Origin: a phage
DNA length: 41,222 nt
Sequence record: NC_105863.1
Strand: one strand, 5' to 3'
Shown: one piece after another, positions 13,723-26,233 of the stretch
Layout of the letters: each line of letters opens with the position of its first letter
Position numbering within the stretch: the stretch's first letter is position 1
Made by a program: the position numbers and the translations under genes
Notes under the pieces: model-generated
What the model was told of the DNA's origin: nothing
The model's input: the letters and a program-made list of their open reading frames with translations, nothing else
The model's database searches: none

Positions 13723-13828
13723 TAATGTGTTAGAATTATTTTGCGCCTAGTGTCGCACACGAAAAGCGGGTGGTTCCCGCCTGGCGCATTAACCTTAACC
13801 AGTAACCTCTTAACCAAAGGATTAAATA

Positions 13829-14245
13829 ATGAAACTTTCTGATTTTTATTACGAAGCTGAGGCCGAAAAAGGCGCGCGTATGCCGATCCCCCTGAAAGAT
13901 GGTACGGACTCAGGGGAATGGCTTAATGTTGTTTCTCCTGAGGCAGACGTTGCCGTTAAGGCCATGCGAGCATTTACGCTGGCGTACCGGGCGGCGTTAG
14001 GCAGACTGAAACAGCTTCGTGATAAATGCGAAGAGACGAAAGATTTCTCGGAATACAACATTAAGATGGAAGACGCAGCGACGGACCTTAACCGCCAGTT
14101 AGCACTTGAACTGGTTAACGGTTGGAGTCTCGACGATGAATTTAATAAAGAGAACTTGAATACTCTTTTCTCACAGTATAAACGACTCGCCGAACACGTT
14201 GTTGTTTTCCATAATGGACAGCTTCGCCAATTGCAGGAAAAGTAG
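13829..14245 (+). CDS. tail assembly chaperone (G-like)
   Basis: 138-aa acidic ORF immediately upstream of tape measure gene with overlapping downstream ORF in -1 frame. Confidence 0.55.
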   Translation: MKLSDFYYEAEAEKGARMPIPLKDGTDSGEWLNVVSPEADVAVKAMRAFTLAYRAALGRLKQLRDKCEETKDFSEYNIKMEDAATDLNRQLALELVNGWSLDDEFNKENLNTLFSQYKRLAEHVVVFHNGQLRQLQEK

Positions 14246-17954: not shown

Positions 17955-18316
17955 ATATTAACGACTACACGGGCATACCTTACGACTTTCGTAAACGTAA
18001 TTGCTGGCATCACGTGCGCATTGTACGGGCGGATGCTGGGTTAGAGACACCGGCGTTCGACGTCACAAGCCCAACGGCAATTAATGAAGCGTTCGACGAA
18101 GGCCATCGTGACACGAAGGGGCTTACGAAAATAGATAAGCCTGAAAACTTCTGTGCGGTGCTTATGGGGTATCGCCGTGGTGGTCGTATCGTGTGGCACG
18201 CAGGAGTATACTTCGACGGGATGGTTAGCCATTGCGAGCTTGCTTCTCGTCAGGTACGGCTTGACAGGCTGGCGGACCTCAGAGACACGTACACGGAGAT
18301 TGAATTTTGGCGATAA
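17951..18316 (+). CDS. minor tail / tail assembly protein (gpK-like position)
   Basis: 121 aa; Cys-His pair (RNCWHH) possibly papain-like, as in lambda K-type proteins; ATGA overlap upstream. Confidence 0.35.
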   Translation: MNINDYTGIPYDFRKRNCWHHVRIVRADAGLETPAFDVTSPTAINEAFDEGHRDTKGLTKIDKPENFCAVLMGYRRGGRIVWHAGVYFDGMVSHCELASRQVRLDRLADLRDTYTEIEFWR

Positions 18317-20862
18317 TCCTGCACTACACGCGAAACGCTGATGGCGCTTTCGACCGTACAAAACACGTCGGGATGCCGATGGAGTTTGTCGTTAACCGTA
18401 TCCCGGACGGCGTGCCGGTGCGCGTCTACCTGGGCGAGATTGGCGATGATACTGATGTCACCGACGACTTCGACGCGCTTAAAGATGAAGACGCTGTGTA
18501 CCACATTATTGAGGGTGCGGGTAGCGGGGCGCTCGGTGCGGTTAGTAAGGTGTTTGGTTTTATCCTTAAGCCAATCGCCAAGTTGTTTGGGTTGAACATG
18601 TCCGCAAACGCCAACTACACGGCGACTAACAACCAGACAACATCGCCTAATAACAGTCTCACAGACCGCTCAAACAAACCACGCCCTTACGAGCGCTCTT
18701 ATGACATCTGCGGGACTGTGCAGACAATCCCTAACGACCTGATGCAGACGTATAAAGCGTTCAACTCCACGGGTGCTTTGCTGGAGTATTCGTATTATGA
18801 CGCGGGGCGTGGGCATCTGCATATTGAGGCTGATGGCGTAACGGAAGGCGACACCCTGATAAGCGACATCACAGGTTCTTCTGTTGCCGTATACGCGCCG
18901 TATACTTCCCCGAACAACACCGCATCGCCGCAACTACAAATCGGCGACGTCGTTGACCAGAAACTCTATGTGACATACTCCAACGACGACGTTGACGGTA
19001 TTGTGCTGAAAGCACCAAACGACATCGGAGCTAACCCAAGCTCCGACGGCACCGCCAAACGTATTTCAAACACCGGCTACATTTATGACCCGTCGGGTGA
19101 CTCTGCTTTTTCTGAGTTTCTTAGCGTCGGTGATGTCGCAGTGTTGAGCAATTTCGACGTTGCTGATGTCACTAACCTGAACGGCTCGTTTGAAGTTTTA
19201 TACGTCGACGACTTCGAAGTAAGATTAGCGGTAAACAGTGCGTCTAACTGGGCAGCGTTGACCAGCGGGCAGACGTACACGTTAACAGAGCGTTCAGATA
19301 CGTTTATGGGCCCGAGCAACACCTATGACGTATCCCTTACCGACTGGTATTACATGGTGCGCGGAGAAGTTGACCGAGTACTTGCTAACGTTGCCGGGCA
19401 GAACGGCCTCTACAAATACGACGGCGGCTATAATCGCACCAGCGTAACGGTAGAACTCCAGTACCAGATGATTGACTCTCGGCGCAACCCATTGAGCGAT
19501 ATTTACACAGTACAGGCTACAATTACCGGTAATAGCACGGATTACGTCGGTACGTCTATCTACGGGCAATTGCCTACTGCATCGCGTTTCCGCGCCCGTA
19601 TGCGCCGTATAACGAATTTTGATAAGGACTATAACGGTACAGTAAGCGACGAGATAACCTTCATCAACCTGTACGGGCAGTCGCTGGACACAACCCCACA
19701 CTACGGCAACCGAACTACCGTGCATTGCGCACGTAAACAGACGCCGCGTGCCGCCAGTATCGACAACCCAGAACTGCGCATGATTGCGACCGAGATGTGC
19801 TACAAATATCTAGGTAATGGGGTATTCGACCCAGTAATGACGCCTAATACACAGGCGGTGCAGTCGCTAATCAGACTGGCGCGTGACCCGGCGGTTGGTA
19901 ATCTGGAGCTGACAACGGCAAACATGGACAAGTTACTCGCCGTGCAGGAAGAGATTGAATCTTATTTTGGCAGCGAATTAGCCGGGCAATTCTGCTACAC
20001 GTTCGACGACTACGACACGACGATGCAGGACATTGTTCAGACCATAGCTGAAGCCGTGTTCTGTACTGCGTACCGTAAAGGCGCGGACATTATGCTGCGT
20101 TTCGACCGTCCGGTTGCAGGGCCTGAAATGGTGTTCACCCACCGTAGTAAGACGACCGGTACGGAGAAATGGACCCGCACGTTCAACGATTCTACGACCT
20201 ACGATAGCCTGTCGTTCTCGTACATCGACCCGGATACGAACGTACAGGAAACGATTTATATCCCGGAAGAACTCGGTGCAAATACGGAGGAATACGAATC
20301 AAAGGGCGTGCGTAACTACCAACAGGCATACTGGCTGGCGTGGCGTCGCTACCAACGCAATGTGTTAAGTAAAGTTGTCGTAGAGTTCGAAGCTACTGAA
20401 GAGGGTGCGCTCGCCACACCCGGCGGCGTAATCAGCGTGGTTAAAGGTTCACGTATTGCGCCACAGGACGGCTATGTTGTTGCCGTTAATGGGCTTACGC
20501 TGACGCTGTCACAGCCCATTACGTTTACCCCCGGCGATGACCACTCCATCATTCTTAAGAAACGCGACGGCTCGGTGCAGAGTATCTCTGTTATCAAAGG
20601 AAGCCACGACCGCGAAGTGATTATGCTCTCCGCGCCGGAAGAAGCAATCTACACGGGGAATAGCGCACTAAAAACTGAGTTTTCATTCGGCAACGAAGCA
20701 AGGCATAATGCTCAGAAGATAGTTGTTTCTTCAATCGACCCTGGCGACGACCGCACGGTCAAGATTACTGGCTACAACTATGACGACGGATTCTACAAAT
20801 ACGACGGCGTCGCGCCATACGGCAGCGGTTTCTCCGACGGATTCAGCAATGGTTTTAATTAA
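18307..20862 (+). CDS. tail tip / host specificity protein (J-like central fibre protein)
   Basis: 851-aa ORF after minor tail genes; TTG start at 18307 with RBS GGAGA 8 nt upstream; size and position typical of siphovirus tip protein. Confidence 0.55.
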   Translation: MAIILHYTRNADGAFDRTKHVGMPMEFVVNRIPDGVPVRVYLGEIGDDTDVTDDFDALKDEDAVYHIIEGAGSGALGAVSKVFGFILKPIAKLFGLNMSANANYTATNNQTTSPNNSLTDRSNKPRPYERSYDICGTVQTIPNDLMQTYKAFNSTGALLEYSYYDAGRGHLHIEADGVTEGDTLISDITGSSVAVYAPYTSPNNTASPQLQIGDVVDQKLYVTYSNDDVDGIVLKAPNDIGANPSSDGTAKRISNTGYIYDPSGDSAFSEFLSVGDVAVLSNFDVADVTNLNGSFEVLYVDDFEVRLAVNSASNWAALTSGQTYTLTERSDTFMGPSNTYDVSLTDWYYMVRGEVDRVLANVAGQNGLYKYDGGYNRTSVTVELQYQMIDSRRNPLSDIYTVQATITGNSTDYVGTSIYGQLPTASRFRARMRRITNFDKDYNGTVSDEITFINLYGQSLDTTPHYGNRTTVHCARKQTPRAASIDNPELRMIATEMCYKYLGNGVFDPVMTPNTQAVQSLIRLARDPAVGNLELTTANMDKLLAVQEEIESYFGSELAGQFCYTFDDYDTTMQDIVQTIAEAVFCTAYRKGADIMLRFDRPVAGPEMVFTHRSKTTGTEKWTRTFNDSTTYDSLSFSYIDPDTNVQETIYIPEELGANTEEYESKGVRNYQQAYWLAWRRYQRNVLSKVVVEFEATEEGALATPGGVISVVKGSRIAPQDGYVVAVNGLTLTLSQPITFTPGDDHSIILKKRDGSVQSISVIKGSHDREVIMLSAPEEAIYTGNSALKTEFSFGNEARHNAQKIVVSSIDPGDDRTVKITGYNYDDGFYKYDGVAPYGSGFSDGFSNGFN

Positions 20863-20874
20863 AGAGGACTCTAT

Positions 20875-23829
20875 ATGTCAAGCGGATGCGGTGACGTTTT
20901 AAGCCTGGCGGATTTACAAACCGCCAAGAAACATCAGATTTTCGAGGCCGAGGTTATCACTGGCAAATCCGGCGGTGTCGCCGGTGGTGCCGATATTGAT
21001 TACGCGACAAATCAGGTTACTGGACAGACCCAGAAGACGTTACCTGCCGTGTTGCGTGATGCTGGTTTTAAACTGGCAGATTTTGATTTCACGTCAGGCG
21101 GTACACTATCCGCTAACGACCGAAACACCGCAGTTTTGTGGCCGTCGTCCTCTGGCGGTGACGGGGATTGGTACTATTGGTTGGGTGCTCTACCAAAAAT
21201 TATCCCAGCGTCATCCTCCCCGCAGTCCACCGGTGGCGTGGCAGATGGGGCGTGGCAGCCTGTCGGGTCGGTCATACTGCGGCAGCAAATATCTGATGTA
21301 AACGGTGCAATTCTGTACCCAGATTTACATGTGGCGCGATGGAAGGACGAATACGACCCGCGCGCATGGGGCGCCGTGGGCGACGGCGTAACTGATGATA
21401 CTCAATCTATTTTTAATGTATTAGCAGCTTCCCCCAACAATTGGATTATAGACGGCAGGGGTTTGACTTATAAAGTTTCCCAATTACCTGACATTAGTAA
21501 ATTTAAGAATGCTGCATTCGTTTACGAGCGCGTAGCCGGGCAACCGCTTACTTATGTAGCTGATGGCTTCTTTAACGGCTCACTAACTAAGGTGACGGAT
21601 ACCCCGTTCTACAACGCATGGACGCAGGATAAAACTTTCGTCTACGACCATGTTATTTACGCCCCGTTTATGGCGGGCGAACGACATGGTGTTCAAAACT
21701 TACATGTAGCTTGGGTTCGCTCTGGAGACGACGGGCAGACTTGGTCAATGCCTGAGTGGTTGACTCCAATCCATGCTGACTATAATGCTAGTGTTTCTAC
21801 GAACAGAGTTAACTACCACTGCATGAGCATGGGTACGTGCGGCAACCGATTATATGCAGTTATAGAAACCCGCTACTTATCTAATATGCGGATGAAGAAG
21901 GCAGAACTTTGGTCACGCCCAATGCCGTATTTTAGACACCCAACCGGCGGAATAACTATTAGTTCTGGCTCCACTACTGCTACCATTGTTATAGAAAATC
22001 ATGGCCTAAAAGCAGGAGATGCGGTTAACTTCTCTAATACATCGGCAACTGGCGTATCGGGTAATATGACGGTTGCGTCTATAATTAACCGAAATACGTT
22101 CACTGTTACGCTCTCAAGCCCTGCGAGTTCCACCATAAACAATGCGGGTGTTACCTGGAACTTCGCAACGCGATTCTGGGACAGCCCGTGGGAAATTACC
22201 GAATTGCCGGGGGTAGCATACTCCACTAACGCTGATTTGTGTGTCACGGAGACACATAGTTTTGCGGTTATAGATGATACTAACTACACTATCGCTGTCG
22301 GCTATCACAACGGCGATGTGTCCCCTCGGCGTCTCGGCGTCTTGTATTTTAGTAACGTGTATGACAATCCAGGCGTATTCGTTCGTCGCACTGTCGCTCA
22401 GGCATACGCTGATAACGCTTCTGAGCCGTGCGTGAAAAGTTATGGAGGTGTGCTCTACCTTACCACACGCGGCACATTACCTACTTCCCCTGGCTCTACA
22501 CTGGCGATGAGCACCGATTCAGGGCAAAACTGGAGCTACTTGCGATTTCCGAACAATGTACATCACTCCAATCTTCCGTTCGCTAAAGTAGGTGACTATC
22601 TCTACATCTTTGGTACAGAACGTGCCTTCGGCGAGTGGGAAGGTGGCGAGCAAGACAGCCGCTATGAAGGTTCGTATCCACGGACCTTTATGTGCAAAGT
22701 TAATGTGTCGTCATGGCCCTCATCTTTAGATGATGTTCAGTGGTTTAATATTACCGACCAAATATACCAGGGTCATATCGTTAACACTGCTGTCGGCGTC
22801 GGCTCGGTCTGTGTTAAAGATGGCTGGTTGTACTATATCTTTGGTGGGGAAGACTTCTTCTCTCCCTGGAGCATCGGGGATAACAGTGCGAAGTTATGGT
22901 ACAAGCATGATGGGCATCCGGCTGACTTATATAGCTACCGGATAAAGATTGAAGGCCACCCGTATGTGTCACGTGATTTCAAATACGGAGCAACTCCTAA
23001 CCGTACACTACCTGTCGCAATGGGTGTAGATGGTGTCCGTCATGTAGAAGCACCTTTGACGTTTGACAATGATATAAGCGTGTACTCCCTGCGTGTAACG
23101 GGGTTGGAATACGATGGCACACAACAGTCTGCCGTGCGTGCACGGTTTGATGGTGATTACGGGCTGATTTCAAAAACAGTCCCGACTAAAACTCCATCGG
23201 GTCAACGACTGATTGTTAGTGGCGGTGATGGCGCATCCAGTTCCGACGGTGCATTGCTGCAACTGTACGGGTCGAACCATGCAACGCCTAACAGGGCTAT
23301 TATGTATGCGTCAGGAGGCTTCTACTCATACGACAATTTCCTTCCTTACTTAGACTCGCAAGTGTCTTTAGGTTCGGCAGGTAATAGGTGGACTACGGTG
23401 TACGCGACCACCGGTACGATAAACACGTCTGATGGTACACTTAAGACGAATAAAGAGGAAATTGAGGGACAACTCCTTACCGCATGGGAGGATATACATG
23501 TAATATCTTTTAAGTGGCTTGAAAGCCTAGCAATCAAGGGTGACACTGCAAGGATACACTTCGGTGTGATAGCCCAAGATGTGCGAGACATCTTGGTCAA
23601 CCATGGGCTTATGGAGAAAGATTCTACCGATTGTAAATATGCTTTCTTGTGCTACGACCCAATTGAAGCTGCGTATGATATTGATGAAGATGGCCAGACT
23701 GTACAAGTATCCCCTCCCGGCGGCAGATGGGGGGTTAGGGCGGACCAGATGTTCTTCATAGAGATTGCCTATCAGCGTAAGAAGATGCGCGAGTTCGAGA
23801 AGAGGCTGGCAGCACTAGAAGATAAATAA
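20875..23829 (+). CDS. tailspike / capsule depolymerase with C-terminal intramolecular chaperone (peptidase S74-like) domain
   Basis: 984 aa; two Asp-box (BNR) motifs SGDDGQTW and STDSGQNW; GAVGDGVTDDT motif typical of beta-helix glycosidases; C-terminal segment from about 23428 (TSDGTLKTNKEEIEGQ..) resembles the auto-cleaving chaperone of endosialidase/tail-fibre proteins. Confidence 0.75.
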   Translation: MSSGCGDVLSLADLQTAKKHQIFEAEVITGKSGGVAGGADIDYATNQVTGQTQKTLPAVLRDAGFKLADFDFTSGGTLSANDRNTAVLWPSSSGGDGDWYYWLGALPKIIPASSSPQSTGGVADGAWQPVGSVILRQQISDVNGAILYPDLHVARWKDEYDPRAWGAVGDGVTDDTQSIFNVLAASPNNWIIDGRGLTYKVSQLPDISKFKNAAFVYERVAGQPLTYVADGFFNGSLTKVTDTPFYNAWTQDKTFVYDHVIYAPFMAGERHGVQNLHVAWVRSGDDGQTWSMPEWLTPIHADYNASVSTNRVNYHCMSMGTCGNRLYAVIETRYLSNMRMKKAELWSRPMPYFRHPTGGITISSGSTTATIVIENHGLKAGDAVNFSNTSATGVSGNMTVASIINRNTFTVTLSSPASSTINNAGVTWNFATRFWDSPWEITELPGVAYSTNADLCVTETHSFAVIDDTNYTIAVGYHNGDVSPRRLGVLYFSNVYDNPGVFVRRTVAQAYADNASEPCVKSYGGVLYLTTRGTLPTSPGSTLAMSTDSGQNWSYLRFPNNVHHSNLPFAKVGDYLYIFGTERAFGEWEGGEQDSRYEGSYPRTFMCKVNVSSWPSSLDDVQWFNITDQIYQGHIVNTAVGVGSVCVKDGWLYYIFGGEDFFSPWSIGDNSAKLWYKHDGHPADLYSYRIKIEGHPYVSRDFKYGATPNRTLPVAMGVDGVRHVEAPLTFDNDISVYSLRVTGLEYDGTQQSAVRARFDGDYGLISKTVPTKTPSGQRLIVSGGDGASSSDGALLQLYGSNHATPNRAIMYASGGFYSYDNFLPYLDSQVSLGSAGNRWTTVYATTGTINTSDGTLKTNKEEIEGQLLTAWEDIHVISFKWLESLAIKGDTARIHFGVIAQDVRDILVNHGLMEKDSTDCKYAFLCYDPIEAAYDIDEDGQTVQVSPPGGRWGVRADQMFFIEIAYQRKKMREFEKRLAALEDK

Positions 23830-23830
23830 A

Positions 23831-23857
23831 ACTAAGGCCCCAAACGGGGCCTTTTCT
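23831..23857 (+). terminator. rho-independent terminator (AAGGCCCCAAACGGGGCCTTTTCT)
   Basis: 8-bp stem hairpin plus T-run directly after tailspike stop. Confidence 0.65.
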
Positions 23858-23995
23858 CTACTCTTCGGATAACTTTTCCAGTACAAACGCCAGTTGCGCA
23901 TTAGCGGCGTCTCTTTGCTGCCGTAGTCGCAGAACCTCTTCTTCTAGTTCCTTGATACGTTTTTGCAATGCTGGAATCGGGGCTATGATGTTCAT
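23858..23995 (-). CDS. small coiled-coil protein (45 aa), translationally coupled to helicase
   Basis: ATG at 23995 overlaps helicase TGA (ATGA); sequence MNIIAPIPALQKRIKELEEEVLRLRQQRDAANAQLAFVLEKLSEE; below ORF-track cutoff. Confidence 0.3.
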   Translation of the reverse strand: MNIIAPIPALQKRIKELEEEVLRLRQQRDAANAQLAFVLEKLSEE

Positions 23996-25416
23996 TTCTT
24001 ACCTCTTCTCTTCATATAATTAAGCAATTCTTCCTGGACCGATTTCTTCTCGTCTGTACGCGCGGCAACAACCTCGTCAAGAGTGTCTTTAGCGACTATG
24101 TGATAAAGGAACACCGGGCGCTCGTGGCCAGCCTGTTTCTGGCGGACCGGGCCTATACGCTCGACAACCTGCAAATAGTGCTCAAGATTCCAGCCTTGCG
24201 AAATAAACGCCAGATGATGCCCGCCGTCCTGTAAATTCAAACCATGCCCGGCTGACGCCGGGTGCACGCATAAGATTTCGATTTCGCCACGGTTCCACGC
24301 TTCCATCTGCTTATTACCCTTCGCACCTTTGGCGAACGCCTGCGCCTGCGGGAATCGCTTAAGGATGCGCTCCAGTTCATGCTTAAACTGATAAGCCACA
24401 AGTAACGGTGCGCCCTGTAACTCCTCGACAATGGACTCGAGCGCATCCAGTTTCGTATCGTGCACTTTCTCCCAGTCTTTCGTTGCCTCACCGTCCGGCC
24501 CTGACACATATACGGCGCCGGATGCAATCTGCAAACACTTTGACGTCTTCGCTGCGGCGTTAGCCGCTTCTACTTCCCCGCTCTCCAGTTCCGCGAATAA
24601 CTTCTCCTCCATATCGATGTACGCCTGGCGTGCTTTCTTCGGCAGGTCTATTTCAACCGGTACGATAATCGGCGCTTCGCAACCGAACCACTCGGCAGCG
24701 TCAATCGTGAGACTAATGTCTTTCATCTTCTGATGAATTTCATTATCTGCACCCGGTCGCGCATGATACTCTCGCGCCATCGCCGACTTACCTTTCTGGA
24801 CAGAGTTAAACCATCGGTCGGTGAATGCCGTGTATGAAGAACCGAGGCGCTCGCCTGCGTCGATAAACCAGTTCTGACCCCACAAGTCTTTGAGGCCGTT
24901 CGGTGACGGCGTACCAGTAAGGTTGATGAAACGCTTAACCTTACCGAATGCCACTTTACTAAGCGCCTTTGCCCGCTTGCTGCCACCTGAACGGCTACGG
25001 AAAGATTTCAGTTTCGTGCTTTCATCGGCAACAATAACCGTAAAAGGCCAGTCGTCTTTGCCGTAGTAGTCAATCAGCCACTCGATAACTTCGTAGTTAG
25101 TGCACACCACGTTAGCATCTGACTCCAGCGCCGCGATGCGGCGTTTCTCTGAACCTGTCGCATCTACGACACGCAGGCACGGGAATCGCCATTTCTCTTG
25201 TTCTGCCGGCCATGTACCTGATGCAACGCGCAACGGGGCGAGAATTAACACGCGGTCGTCGTCCGTAAGTTGCCCGTTGCGGAACAGGCGGTTTAAAGTC
25301 CACAGGACGCTGCCAGTCTTCCCGGCGCCCATGCTCGCCCAAATATTACAGCGATGGTGCTGCAACATGAACGAGGTCATGAGCTTCTGGTATTCGCGCC
25401 TTTGAAACTTACTCAT
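23992..25416 (-). CDS. SNF2-family (superfamily 2) DNA helicase
   Basis: Walker A ASMGAGKTGS, DExx-like IVADESTKLK, C-terminal helicase motif VI-like QVVERIGPVRQ; 474 aa. Confidence 0.75.
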   Translation of the reverse strand: MSKFQRREYQKLMTSFMLQHHRCNIWASMGAGKTGSVLWTLNRLFRNGQLTDDDRVLILAPLRVASGTWPAEQEKWRFPCLRVVDATGSEKRRIAALESDANVVCTNYEVIEWLIDYYGKDDWPFTVIVADESTKLKSFRSRSGGSKRAKALSKVAFGKVKRFINLTGTPSPNGLKDLWGQNWFIDAGERLGSSYTAFTDRWFNSVQKGKSAMAREYHARPGADNEIHQKMKDISLTIDAAEWFGCEAPIIVPVEIDLPKKARQAYIDMEEKLFAELESGEVEAANAAAKTSKCLQIASGAVYVSGPDGEATKDWEKVHDTKLDALESIVEELQGAPLLVAYQFKHELERILKRFPQAQAFAKGAKGNKQMEAWNRGEIEILCVHPASAGHGLNLQDGGHHLAFISQGWNLEHYLQVVERIGPVRQKQAGHERPVFLYHIVAKDTLDEVVAARTDEKKSVQEELLNYMKRRGKK

Positions 25417-26233
25417 TTACGGCCCCCATAAACGCCTTTATAAATTCGGCGGCTACTTGCGGGACGATGGCATTGCCGTAACCGCGCAATCGTCCCACTC
25501 TGGCGGGTATCCCATTAGCCAGCGGGAATGCGCCGGGTTCAACCGGCCGGAACTTTCCATCACGGCATCCGAGCCAGTCAGCATCTGACCAGAAGCCGTG
25601 GTGCGGGTTGGTTGACTCGCTTTCAATCCCTGCTCTGTTGAGTAGTCCAGCCTGTCGAATGTTCTGTCCCTCCCGTCCGTGCGAATCACTGTCTCTCCAC
25701 TCCCTCTGAAGTCGTTCGCTGTCGGTGTAGGCCAGTTCGTGCGCGCCAAAGAAGAGTCGTTCTCTTTTGTGCGGTGCGCCGACGCTACAAGCTGGGAGTA
25801 CAGCAAACCCGACGGCGTAGTCTTCTCCTTCCAGGTGAGCTTGTAAATCGCACATCCACGATTTTGCAATTGCTGCCGCAACCTGCTCCCCAAAGATGAC
25901 TGGAGGGCGGCACTCGCTGATGAGGTCGAGGAAGACCGGCGCGAGGTGTCTCGGGTCGAACTGTCCGAGTTGCTTTCCCGCCGCGCTAAACGGTTGGCAA
26001 GGCGGGCTTCCCGTCCAGAGAGGCGCATCTTCCGGAACTCCCGCAAGTCTGAGCGCGAGAGGCCAGCCGCCGATACCCGCGAAAAAATGACACTGGGTGA
26101 ACCCGTCAAGGTCTTCTGGCTTAACTTCGGTAATGCTTCTTTCATCTACAACTCCAAAAGGTATGTGACCCTGTTTTATCAACTCACGCAGCCACGCGGC
26201 TGCGCCTTTATCCCATTCATTGTAATAGTTCAT
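25409..26233 (-). CDS. DNA (cytosine-5)-methyltransferase-like protein, compact
   Basis: Motif I FFAGIGG, motif IV PC dipeptide in [16 protein letters not shown]-like FGEQV, motif VIII-like KRERLFF, C-terminal [11 protein letters not shown]; only 274 aa so the variable/target-recognition region is unusually short. Confidence 0.65.

Follow-up and report, generated by a model that had tools for sequence, protein, structure and literature searches.

Pathogenic Escherichia coli of the neonatal-meningitis, urinary and avian types use the K1 capsule as a virulence factor. Several phages that depend on this capsule are Kagunaviruses, and in 63D (AB015437), K1G (ORF27), K1H (ORF24) and JSSK01 (ORF40) the tailspike is an endosialidase of 984 amino acids, as in the phage described here, and is encoded at the same genome position. 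The purified K1H enzyme is a trimer of 93 kDa after proteolysis and degrades the K1 capsule (PMC5696595). The recombinant JSSK01 enzyme strips capsule, forms halos, agglutinates K1 strains and has been used to tell K1 from K1-related strains (PMC11641727). According to a review, the 63D endosialidase was described in an early paper as a tetramer, not a trimer (PMC5380687). The prototype of this glycoside hydrolase family, GH58, is endoNF of phage K1F (1v0e, 3gvl; 3gw6), for which catalytic roles of individual residues (PMC12632334) and the residues of the autoproteolytic mechanism (PMC4690869) have been described. The two Asp-boxes of endoNF have been assigned to propeller blades 1 and 4 (PMC2716378).

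The window, i.e., the whole stretch of 41,222 nucleotides analyzed here, is a Kagunavirus genome (Guernseyvirinae) with 94–96% DNA identity to Kagunavirus genomes. Its 984-aa open reading frame with an ATG start at 20875..23829 (+) was confirmed as a real gene, and on the observed homology, domain order, functional-residue conservation and genomic context the product is almost certainly an endosialidase (endo-N-acetylneuraminidase, GH58) of a K1-capsule-dependent Kagunavirus siphovirus, cleaving polysialic acid and processing itself. The features of the locus are as follows.

20861..20867, + strand: ribosome-binding site AAGAGGA, 7 nt 5' of the ATG
20875..23829, + strand: endosialidase tailspike gene, complete, 984 codons plus stop (ORF call, Pfam, PDB matches, ortholog comparison)
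20875..21279, + strand: virion-attachment module, aa 1–135, including Pfam Tail_spike_N at aa 97–131 (Pfam, homology)
21271..21369, + strand: neck/linker, aa 133–165, where homology to phi92/phAPEC8-type and K1F endosialidases starts
21370..21573, + strand: endosialidase N-terminal domain, aa 166–233, with GAVGDGVTDDT at its start (Pfam, PDB alignment)
21574..22953, + strand: six-bladed beta-propeller catalytic domain, aa 234–693 (Pfam, PDB alignment)
21721..21744, + strand: Asp-box 1, SGDDGQTW, aa 283–290, aligned with endoNF 362–369
21925..22173, + strand: beta-barrel domain nested in the propeller, aa 351–433 (Pfam)
22510..22533, + strand: Asp-box 2, STDSGQNW, aa 546–553, aligned with endoNF 610–617
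22954..23427, + strand: stalk-region segment with R778, S789, L794, D827 and R838 (Pfam, PDB alignment)
23428..23826, + strand: C-terminal intramolecular chaperone/peptidase S74 domain, aa 852–984, 15.2 kDa (Pfam; 3gw6, 3gud, 4uw8, 7y5s)
23834..23853, unstranded: hairpin AAGGCCCC-AAAC-GGGGCCTT, 5 nt 3' of the tailspike stop codon, with T-rich runs on either side, on both strands

The ribosome-binding site shares nucleotides with the stop codon of the preceding gene, which encodes a tail protein (ORF 18307..20862, ending at 20862), and the tailspike gene closes the tail block, 3' of a gpJ-like tail protein gene, as in K1G. The hairpin at 23834..23853 is likely a two-way terminator that separates the rightward tail genes from the leftward replication genes. 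A tRNA scan of the window found none.

At the protein level the tailspike is 98.7% identical to that of K1G, 97.7% to those of both 63D and JSSK01 and 97.3% to that of K1H. The 13–27 substitutions are scattered, with none at catalytic, Asp-box or cleavage residues; among the 13 positions that differ from K1G, one, G776, lies two positions away from R778 in the stalk. DNA identity of the gene is 97.8% to Escherichia phage L AB-2017, 97.3% to K1G, 96.7% to K1H and 96.1% to the endo-N-acetylneuraminidase gene of 63D (AB015437). The close relatives were all isolated on K1 hosts and have been described as K1-specific. The tailspike is thus already known, as a near-identical copy (97–99% protein identity) of the K1G/63D-type enzyme, and its enzyme activity, trimer formation and cleavage are to be expected by analogy with characterized orthologs at 97–99% identity and with solved structures. 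The original prediction, a depolymerase possibly specific for the K1 polysialic-acid capsule, is supported by the 96–98% DNA identity to endosialidase genes of K1-specific phages and by the retention of the catalytic residues.

Pfam assigns five endosialidase-specific domains to the 984-aa tailspike, in canonical order: End_N_terminal (E 7.3e-38, aa 167–233), End_beta_propel PF12217 (E 1.9e-223, aa 234–693), End_beta_barrel PF12195 (E 1.8e-41, aa 351–433), End_tail_spike PF12219, the stalk domain after the propeller (E 5.6e-74, aa 695–851), and Peptidase_S74 PF13884 (E 8.3e-13, aa 852–912). With domain E-values from 1.9e-223 to 8.3e-13, the tailspike motifs are not due to chance. The crystal structure of the phi92 endosialidase (4hiz) matches aa 166–851 at 79% identity in a gap-poor alignment, and endoNF (1v0e/3gvl) matches at E ~1e-229, the 1v0e alignment also being gap-poor. 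Together, the solved structures 4hiz (79%) and endoNF (~55% identity) cover aa 166–984. The expected sialidase-type propeller is hence borne out by both PF12217 and the alignment to the endoNF and phi92 crystal structures. Residues Y246, H271, E517, R532 and R583 are the counterparts of endoNF Y325, H350, E581, R596 and R647, and all are kept. In the stalk region R778 and S789 match endoNF R837 and S848, and L794 takes the place of endoNF Q853; a leucine at this position is also found in the phi92-type enzyme.

All the motifs quoted by the original prediction for a 984-aa tailspike (SGDDGQTW, STDSGQNW and GAVGDGVTDDT) are found where it had placed them. It had also named Asp-boxes lying outside the active site of a beta-propeller as a refutation, which was badly framed: Asp-boxes have a structural role as hairpins, here in blades 1 and 4, and the active site lies on the other face of the propeller, which means that such a position refutes nothing (PMC2716378). 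A role for the Asp-boxes as active-site elements is rejected on the same published structural analysis (PMC2716378).

EndoNF of K1F shares the domain order, the Asp-boxes, the catalytic residues and the Ser-Lys cleavage site with the tailspike, but overall identity is 47.6%, with 58% in the propeller and only 39% in the stalk. K1F also has an extra, T7 gp17-like N-terminal segment of ~80 residues, and aa 88–165 of our tailspike are homologous to K1F residues 170–245. The same catalytic, stalk and chaperone modules recur in phi92 gp143 (4hiz) and its phAPEC8 homolog, the latter 74.5% identical over aa 133–984 and 84% in the propeller. In phi92 and phAPEC8, however, the N-terminal attachment module is different, serving a myovirus baseplate instead of a siphovirus tail tip, and in phAPEC8 the chaperone domain carries a longer insert.

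The C-terminal segment starting at S852 is 133 aa long, and the sequence TSDGTLKTNKEEIEGQ at its beginning spans aa 851–866 (nt 23425–23472). The endoNF stalk and chaperone structure 3gw6 matches aa 756–984 (E 4.3e-56), with further matches to 3gud and 4uw8. The autoproteolysis set D827, R838, T851|S852 and K857 corresponds to endoNF D886, R897, T910, S911 and K916, with every residue kept, and the RefSeq mat_peptide annotation of K1F places the boundary between mature protein and chaperone before S911, equivalent to S852 here. Processing is predicted to convert a 108-kDa chain into fragments of 92.8 and 15.2 kDa, the larger of which, the mature chain, fits the size of 93 kDa reported for the proteolyzed K1H enzyme (PMC5696595). 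The self-cleaving chaperone domain of about 130 residues that had been proposed is accordingly well matched, at the level of sequence, by the 133 aa from S852, the 3gw6 match and the conserved autoproteolytic residues. A C-terminal domain of ~130 aa with the same Asp/Arg/Thr-Ser/Lys set is also found at ~30% identity in the L-shaped tail fiber pb1 of T5 (4uw8) and the neck appendage of GA-1 (3gud), where it is carried by unrelated, non-enzymatic or different receptor-binding parts.

The N-terminal attachment module has a different set of relatives. Residues 1–60 are identical at 59 of 60 positions to the tailspike of the K1-independent Kagunavirus K1ind3, and residues 1–138 are ~70% identical to Salmonella Jerseyvirus tailspikes. 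K1ind3 has the same attachment module and gene position, but the body of its tailspike is HK620-like according to the note in its record, and not an endosialidase. DNA identity is 87–100% at first, falls to ~60% near nt 21035 and reaches background near nt 21215.

The motif GAVGDGVTDDT (aa 166–176, nt 21370–21402) and the 90 residues that precede it align with the beta-helix tailspikes CBA120 TSP1 (4oj5) and 9vvr, and weakly with the beta-1,3-glucanase 5m5z, which could be taken to indicate a beta-helix (pectate-lyase-fold) depolymerase for another polysaccharide. The shared part is an exchangeable N-terminal module only, no pectate-lyase-type Pfam domain follows the motif in the 984-aa tailspike at E<0.1, and the endosialidase structures align continuously past it, which refutes this reading and leaves it with next to no probability. 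The glycosidase-like beta-helix motif of the original prediction needs correcting: it does occur where beta-helix tailspikes begin, CBA120 TSP1 among them, but in this protein it marks the start of the endosialidase N-terminal domain, with no beta-helix catalytic domain after it. It is also very improbable, if slightly less so, that the tailspike is a catalytically dead, binding-only protein that retains the endosialidase fold. Binding-only endosialidase mutants are known, going by the title of Jakobsson 2007, but nothing specific points to one here, all catalytic residues tested are intact and the 97–99% identical orthologs are active enzymes.

A broader linkage specificity deserves more weight while still being unlikely, namely that the tailspike cleaves both alpha-2,8- and alpha-2,9-linked polysialic acid, as is reported for phi92 gp143 (PMC13450770), and hence also acts on K92-type capsules. 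The catalytic region is much closer to the phi92/phAPEC8 type (79% to 4hiz, 84% to the phAPEC8 propeller) than to endoNF (58%), and the leucine at the endoNF Q853 position is common to the tailspike and the phi92 type. However, phi92 gp143 differs at ~21% of the residues, the close relatives all come from K1 hosts and are described as K1-specific, and the JSSK01 enzyme separates K1 from K1-related strains. If true, cleavage of alpha-2,9 linkages would add K92-type capsules, and perhaps alpha-2,9 polysialic acids, to the range of the phage or the enzyme.

As a K1 endosialidase, the tailspike would be synthesized as a 108-kDa precursor, the last 133 residues of which would act as an intramolecular chaperone that aids folding of the trimeric stalk. 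Correct assembly of the trimer would be followed by autoproteolysis of every chain at the T851|S852 bond, in a Ser-Lys mechanism that uses S852, the nucleophile, and K857, together with D827 and R838 contributed by a neighboring chain. The 15-kDa fragment would then be released and a stable 93-kDa subunit would remain. Residues 1 to ~135 may anchor the mature trimer at the tail tip, from where the six-bladed propeller would attack polysialic acid at alpha-2,8 linkages within the chain through E517, R532, R583, H271 and Y246, and the stripping of the K1 capsule would give the phage access to the outer membrane.

Elsewhere in the window, we made a separate observation in the C5-methylase gene at 25409–26233 (-), which holds a second ORF (frame B) in the +1 frame. 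This ORF is kept at the protein level in all nine of the nine distant phage loci checked. Sequence searches of Pfam, NCBIfam and the PDB gave no matches for it, and an AlphaFold2 model of its product from a 45-sequence alignment was of low confidence (mean pLDDT 49.7, pTM 0.16). None of 10 representative homologs is fused in frame to a C5-methylase catalytic domain; a Dam domain is the fusion partner in one of them and DUF2800/PD-(D/E)XK in another. Our literature searches on Mte8 and on overlapping or overprinted phage methyltransferase genes yielded no published description of the frame-B ORF. If the observation holds, it would represent a widespread overlapping-gene pair in C5-methyltransferase genes across very distant phages and a systematic annotation gap, in which usually one of the two frames is annotated, and it would matter more than the tailspike.

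The tailspike itself is a further allele in a well-characterized family and raises no new question. Possible uses are those of the K1H and JSSK01 depolymerases, i.e., capsule stripping or K1 typing. For the biology of the phage, the sequence alone predicts a requirement for the K1 polysialic-acid capsule.

The tailspike gene was confirmed as originally called, an open reading frame of 984 codons from its ATG start. A ribosome-binding site (AAGAGGA) lies 7 nt 5' of the ATG and overlaps the stop of the preceding gpJ-like tail-protein gene, and, as in the K1-dependent phage K1G, the tailspike gene closes the tail block and faces the convergent helicase/methylase block. In Pfam searches the endosialidase domain set is complete and in order, and all four motifs quoted in the original prediction were located in the protein:

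20875-23829 (+), tailspike gene
aa 97-131, Tail_spike_N (Pfam E 1e-13)
aa 166-176, GAVGDGVTDDT motif
aa 167-233, End_N_terminal (Pfam E 7e-38)
aa 234-693, End_beta_propel (Pfam E 2e-223)
aa 283-290, Asp-box SGDDGQTW
aa 351-433, End_beta_barrel, nested (Pfam E 2e-41)
aa 546-553, Asp-box STDSGQNW
aa 695-851, End_tail_spike (Pfam E 6e-74)
aa 851-866, TSDGTLKTNKEEIEGQ
aa 852-912, Peptidase_S74 (Pfam E 8e-13)

The nucleotide sequence of the gene matches Escherichia phage L AB-2017 and a Kagunavirus record at 97.8% identity, K1G at 97.3%, K1H at 96.7% and the endo-N-acetylneuraminidase gene of phage 63D (AB015437) at 96.1%. The encoded protein shares 98.7% identity with K1G, 97.7% with both 63D and JSSK01 and 97.3% with K1H, and the protein comparison gave zero differences from these four in catalytic, Asp-box and cleavage residues. 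Endosialidase 4hiz, which we take to be the phi92 gp143 crystal structure, aligns nearly gap-free with aa 166-851 at 79% identity, and its chain terminates at the residue aligned with T851. Structures of the phage K1F endosialidase endoNF (1v0e, 3gvl) align to the same region at E of about 1e-229, and its stalk and chaperone domain (3gw6) to aa 756-984 (E 4e-56); further matches, to the last ~160 residues, are 4uw8 (the L-shaped tail fibre of T5) and 3gud (a neck appendage protein).

Alignment with endoNF mapped five positions, placing Y246, H271, E517, R532 and R583 at endoNF Y325, H350, E581, R596 and R647. In deep mutational scanning of the K1F protein, H350, R549, E581, R596 and R647 were listed as key catalytic positions, where substitutions are very poorly tolerated (PMC12632334), and the recombinant JSSK01 enzyme stripped capsule, formed halos and agglutinated K1 strains (PMC11641727). 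The endosialidase domains, the retained catalytic residues and the close identity to these four enzymes support the predicted K1 capsule depolymerase. The Asp-boxes were read differently: they are structural beta-hairpins that hold the propeller blades together on the face opposite the active site, and endoNF carries one in blade 1 and another in blade 4 (PMC2716378). Hence their position outside the active site, which had been proposed as a refutation test, is not a valid one. The GAVGDGVTDDT motif is indeed similar to the way beta-helix tailspikes begin, and the alignment with CBA120 TSP1 (4oj5) and 9vvr passes through it. Here it marks the beginning of the endosialidase N-terminal domain. 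Pfam showed no domain of the pectate-lyase type in the tailspike, and endosialidase structures align across the region, so the beta-helix reading was rejected.

The proposed self-cleaving C-terminal chaperone domain holds up: D827, R838, T851, S852 and K857 match endoNF D886, R897, T910, S911 and K916, the domain comprises 133 residues from S852 to the C-terminus, and 3gw6 matches it. In the shared mechanism described for the T5 fibre, the serine is activated by a lysine five residues downstream and the oxyanion hole consists of an Asp and an Arg from the neighbouring chain, so that cleavage needs a correctly folded trimer (PMC4690869). Because the K1F RefSeq record sets the mature/chaperone boundary immediately before S911, cleavage is predicted between T851 and S852. 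By calculation the precursor weighs 108.1 kDa, and cleavage would yield a mature chain of 92.8 kDa and a released domain of 15.2 kDa; the purified K1H depolymerase was 93 kDa 'after proteolysis', mostly trimeric, and degraded K1 capsule (PMC5696595).

The analysis shows homology and conserved residues directly, and from these near-identical characterised orthologues we infer the activity, trimer state and cleavage of the tailspike. The following four steps almost certainly apply jointly. The precursor would trimerise with the aid of its own C-terminal domain, each chain would cut itself at T851-S852, aa 1 to ~135 would dock the mature trimer onto the tail tip, and the propeller would hydrolyse alpha-2,8 sialyl linkages in the interior of the K1 capsule chains, making the cell surface reachable. 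Gene, domains, processing and specificity are already known from 63D, K1G, K1H and JSSK01. The phi92 gp143 enzyme, whose crystal structure is cited in the same work, was reported to cleave polysialic acid of both alpha-2,8 and alpha-2,9 linkage (PMC13450770). Since the tailspike is far nearer to this dual-linkage enzyme than to endoNF, it might also act on K92-type capsule, which we regard as possible, if rather improbable.

Searching phage genomes with the tailspike (tblastn) separated three exchangeable parts: aa 1-138, about 70% identical to Salmonella Jerseyvirus tailspikes and 68% to that of the K1-independent Kagunavirus K1ind3 (59/60 over the first 60 residues); aa 133-984, 74.5% identical to the phi92-type phAPEC8 enzyme; and aa ~820-984, which match numerous tail-fibre chaperone domains at about 30% identity. 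Against K1ind3, DNA identity is 87-100% as far as ~nt 21035, then ~60%, and reaches background past ~nt 21215; this interval marks the recombination joint. Such a build fits horizontal exchange of tailspike modules, a known pattern (PMC5380687). In this siphovirus, tailspike aa 88-165 (nt 20875-21370 compared) are clearly homologous to aa 170-245 of the podovirus K1F endosialidase (gene 17) and also to 9vvr and CBA120 TSP1. This 'Tail_spike_N plus neck' segment, upstream of the region covered by endosialidase crystal structures, therefore moves together with catalytic modules across phage morphotypes.

The whole window is a Kagunavirus genome that looks complete, with no tRNA genes in 1-41222. 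Its best public matches (UTI89UKE1, fKuEco01 and K1H) reach 94-96% DNA identity over only 83-91% of the length; it may therefore lie under the 95% whole-genome cut-off commonly used for species and be a new lineage at species level. Conservation of the tailspike gene (97.8%) exceeds the genome average. Other elements are:

13740-13804 (+), full-length match to the Rfam int-alpA RNA motif (RF02996)
13829-14245, 138-aa ORF opening the rightward tail-gene block
23858-23995 (-), 45-codon ORF between the tailspike terminator hairpin and the helicase gene
25409-26233 (-), C5 cytosine methylase gene, 274 aa (frame A)
25453-26145 (-), 230-codon ORF in the +1 frame, wholly inside the methylase gene (frame B)

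The int-alpA match, in a divergent intergenic region just 5' of the 138-aa ORF, is borderline (36.9 bits; gathering score 35.8) and unexpected in a virulent Kagunavirus, as the motif normally accompanies prophage integrase/alpA genes. The 45-codon ORF starts with an ATG that shares bases with the helicase stop codon (ATGA), an arrangement suggestive of translational coupling; its counterparts are annotated as hypothetical in K1G (ORF28) and UTI89UKE1.

Frame A matches Pfam DNA_methylase (E 5e-17) and phrog_363 (E 1e-88), and the K1G record labels frame B 'Mte8-like'. Protein-level conservation covers both frames over the same stretch of nucleotides, B lying +1 to A each time, at all nine distant loci compared: Rhodobacter phage RcCWillis, Salmonella phage epsilon15, Pseudomonas phage PMG1, Dunaliella viridis virus SI2, cyanophage Cr-LKS3, a Seunavirus and three metagenomic contigs. 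On these contigs B is the sole called gene, and frame A is open for 295-565 codons and homologous to methylase. The +1-frame scores were 80-143 bits, against 35-39 ± 9-11 bits (maximum 60-67) when frame A was synonymously recoded in both partners, and an open +1 run of 230 codons arose in 5/2000 recodings. At most loci the ATG follows a Shine-Dalgarno-like GGAG/AAGGAG sequence at a nearly constant position, and the frame B family has 9,988 representative clusters at E ≤ 1e-3. Paired-frame conservation, the recoding null, start-site placement and family size are evidence that frame B is probably protein-coding.

Frame B had no match in Pfam, NCBIfam or PDB, and AlphaFold gave a low-confidence model for it. 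Visual inspection places motifs I, IV, VI, VIII and X in frame A, and the frame B strings WPTPTA-D and LNPxxxxWLMGxPxxW resemble a target-recognition region and motif IX. We found no published description of the overlap in the literature searched, and in annotations usually just one frame of the pair is called as a gene. A and B may form a widespread overlapping gene pair, and perhaps encode two subunits of one methyltransferase.
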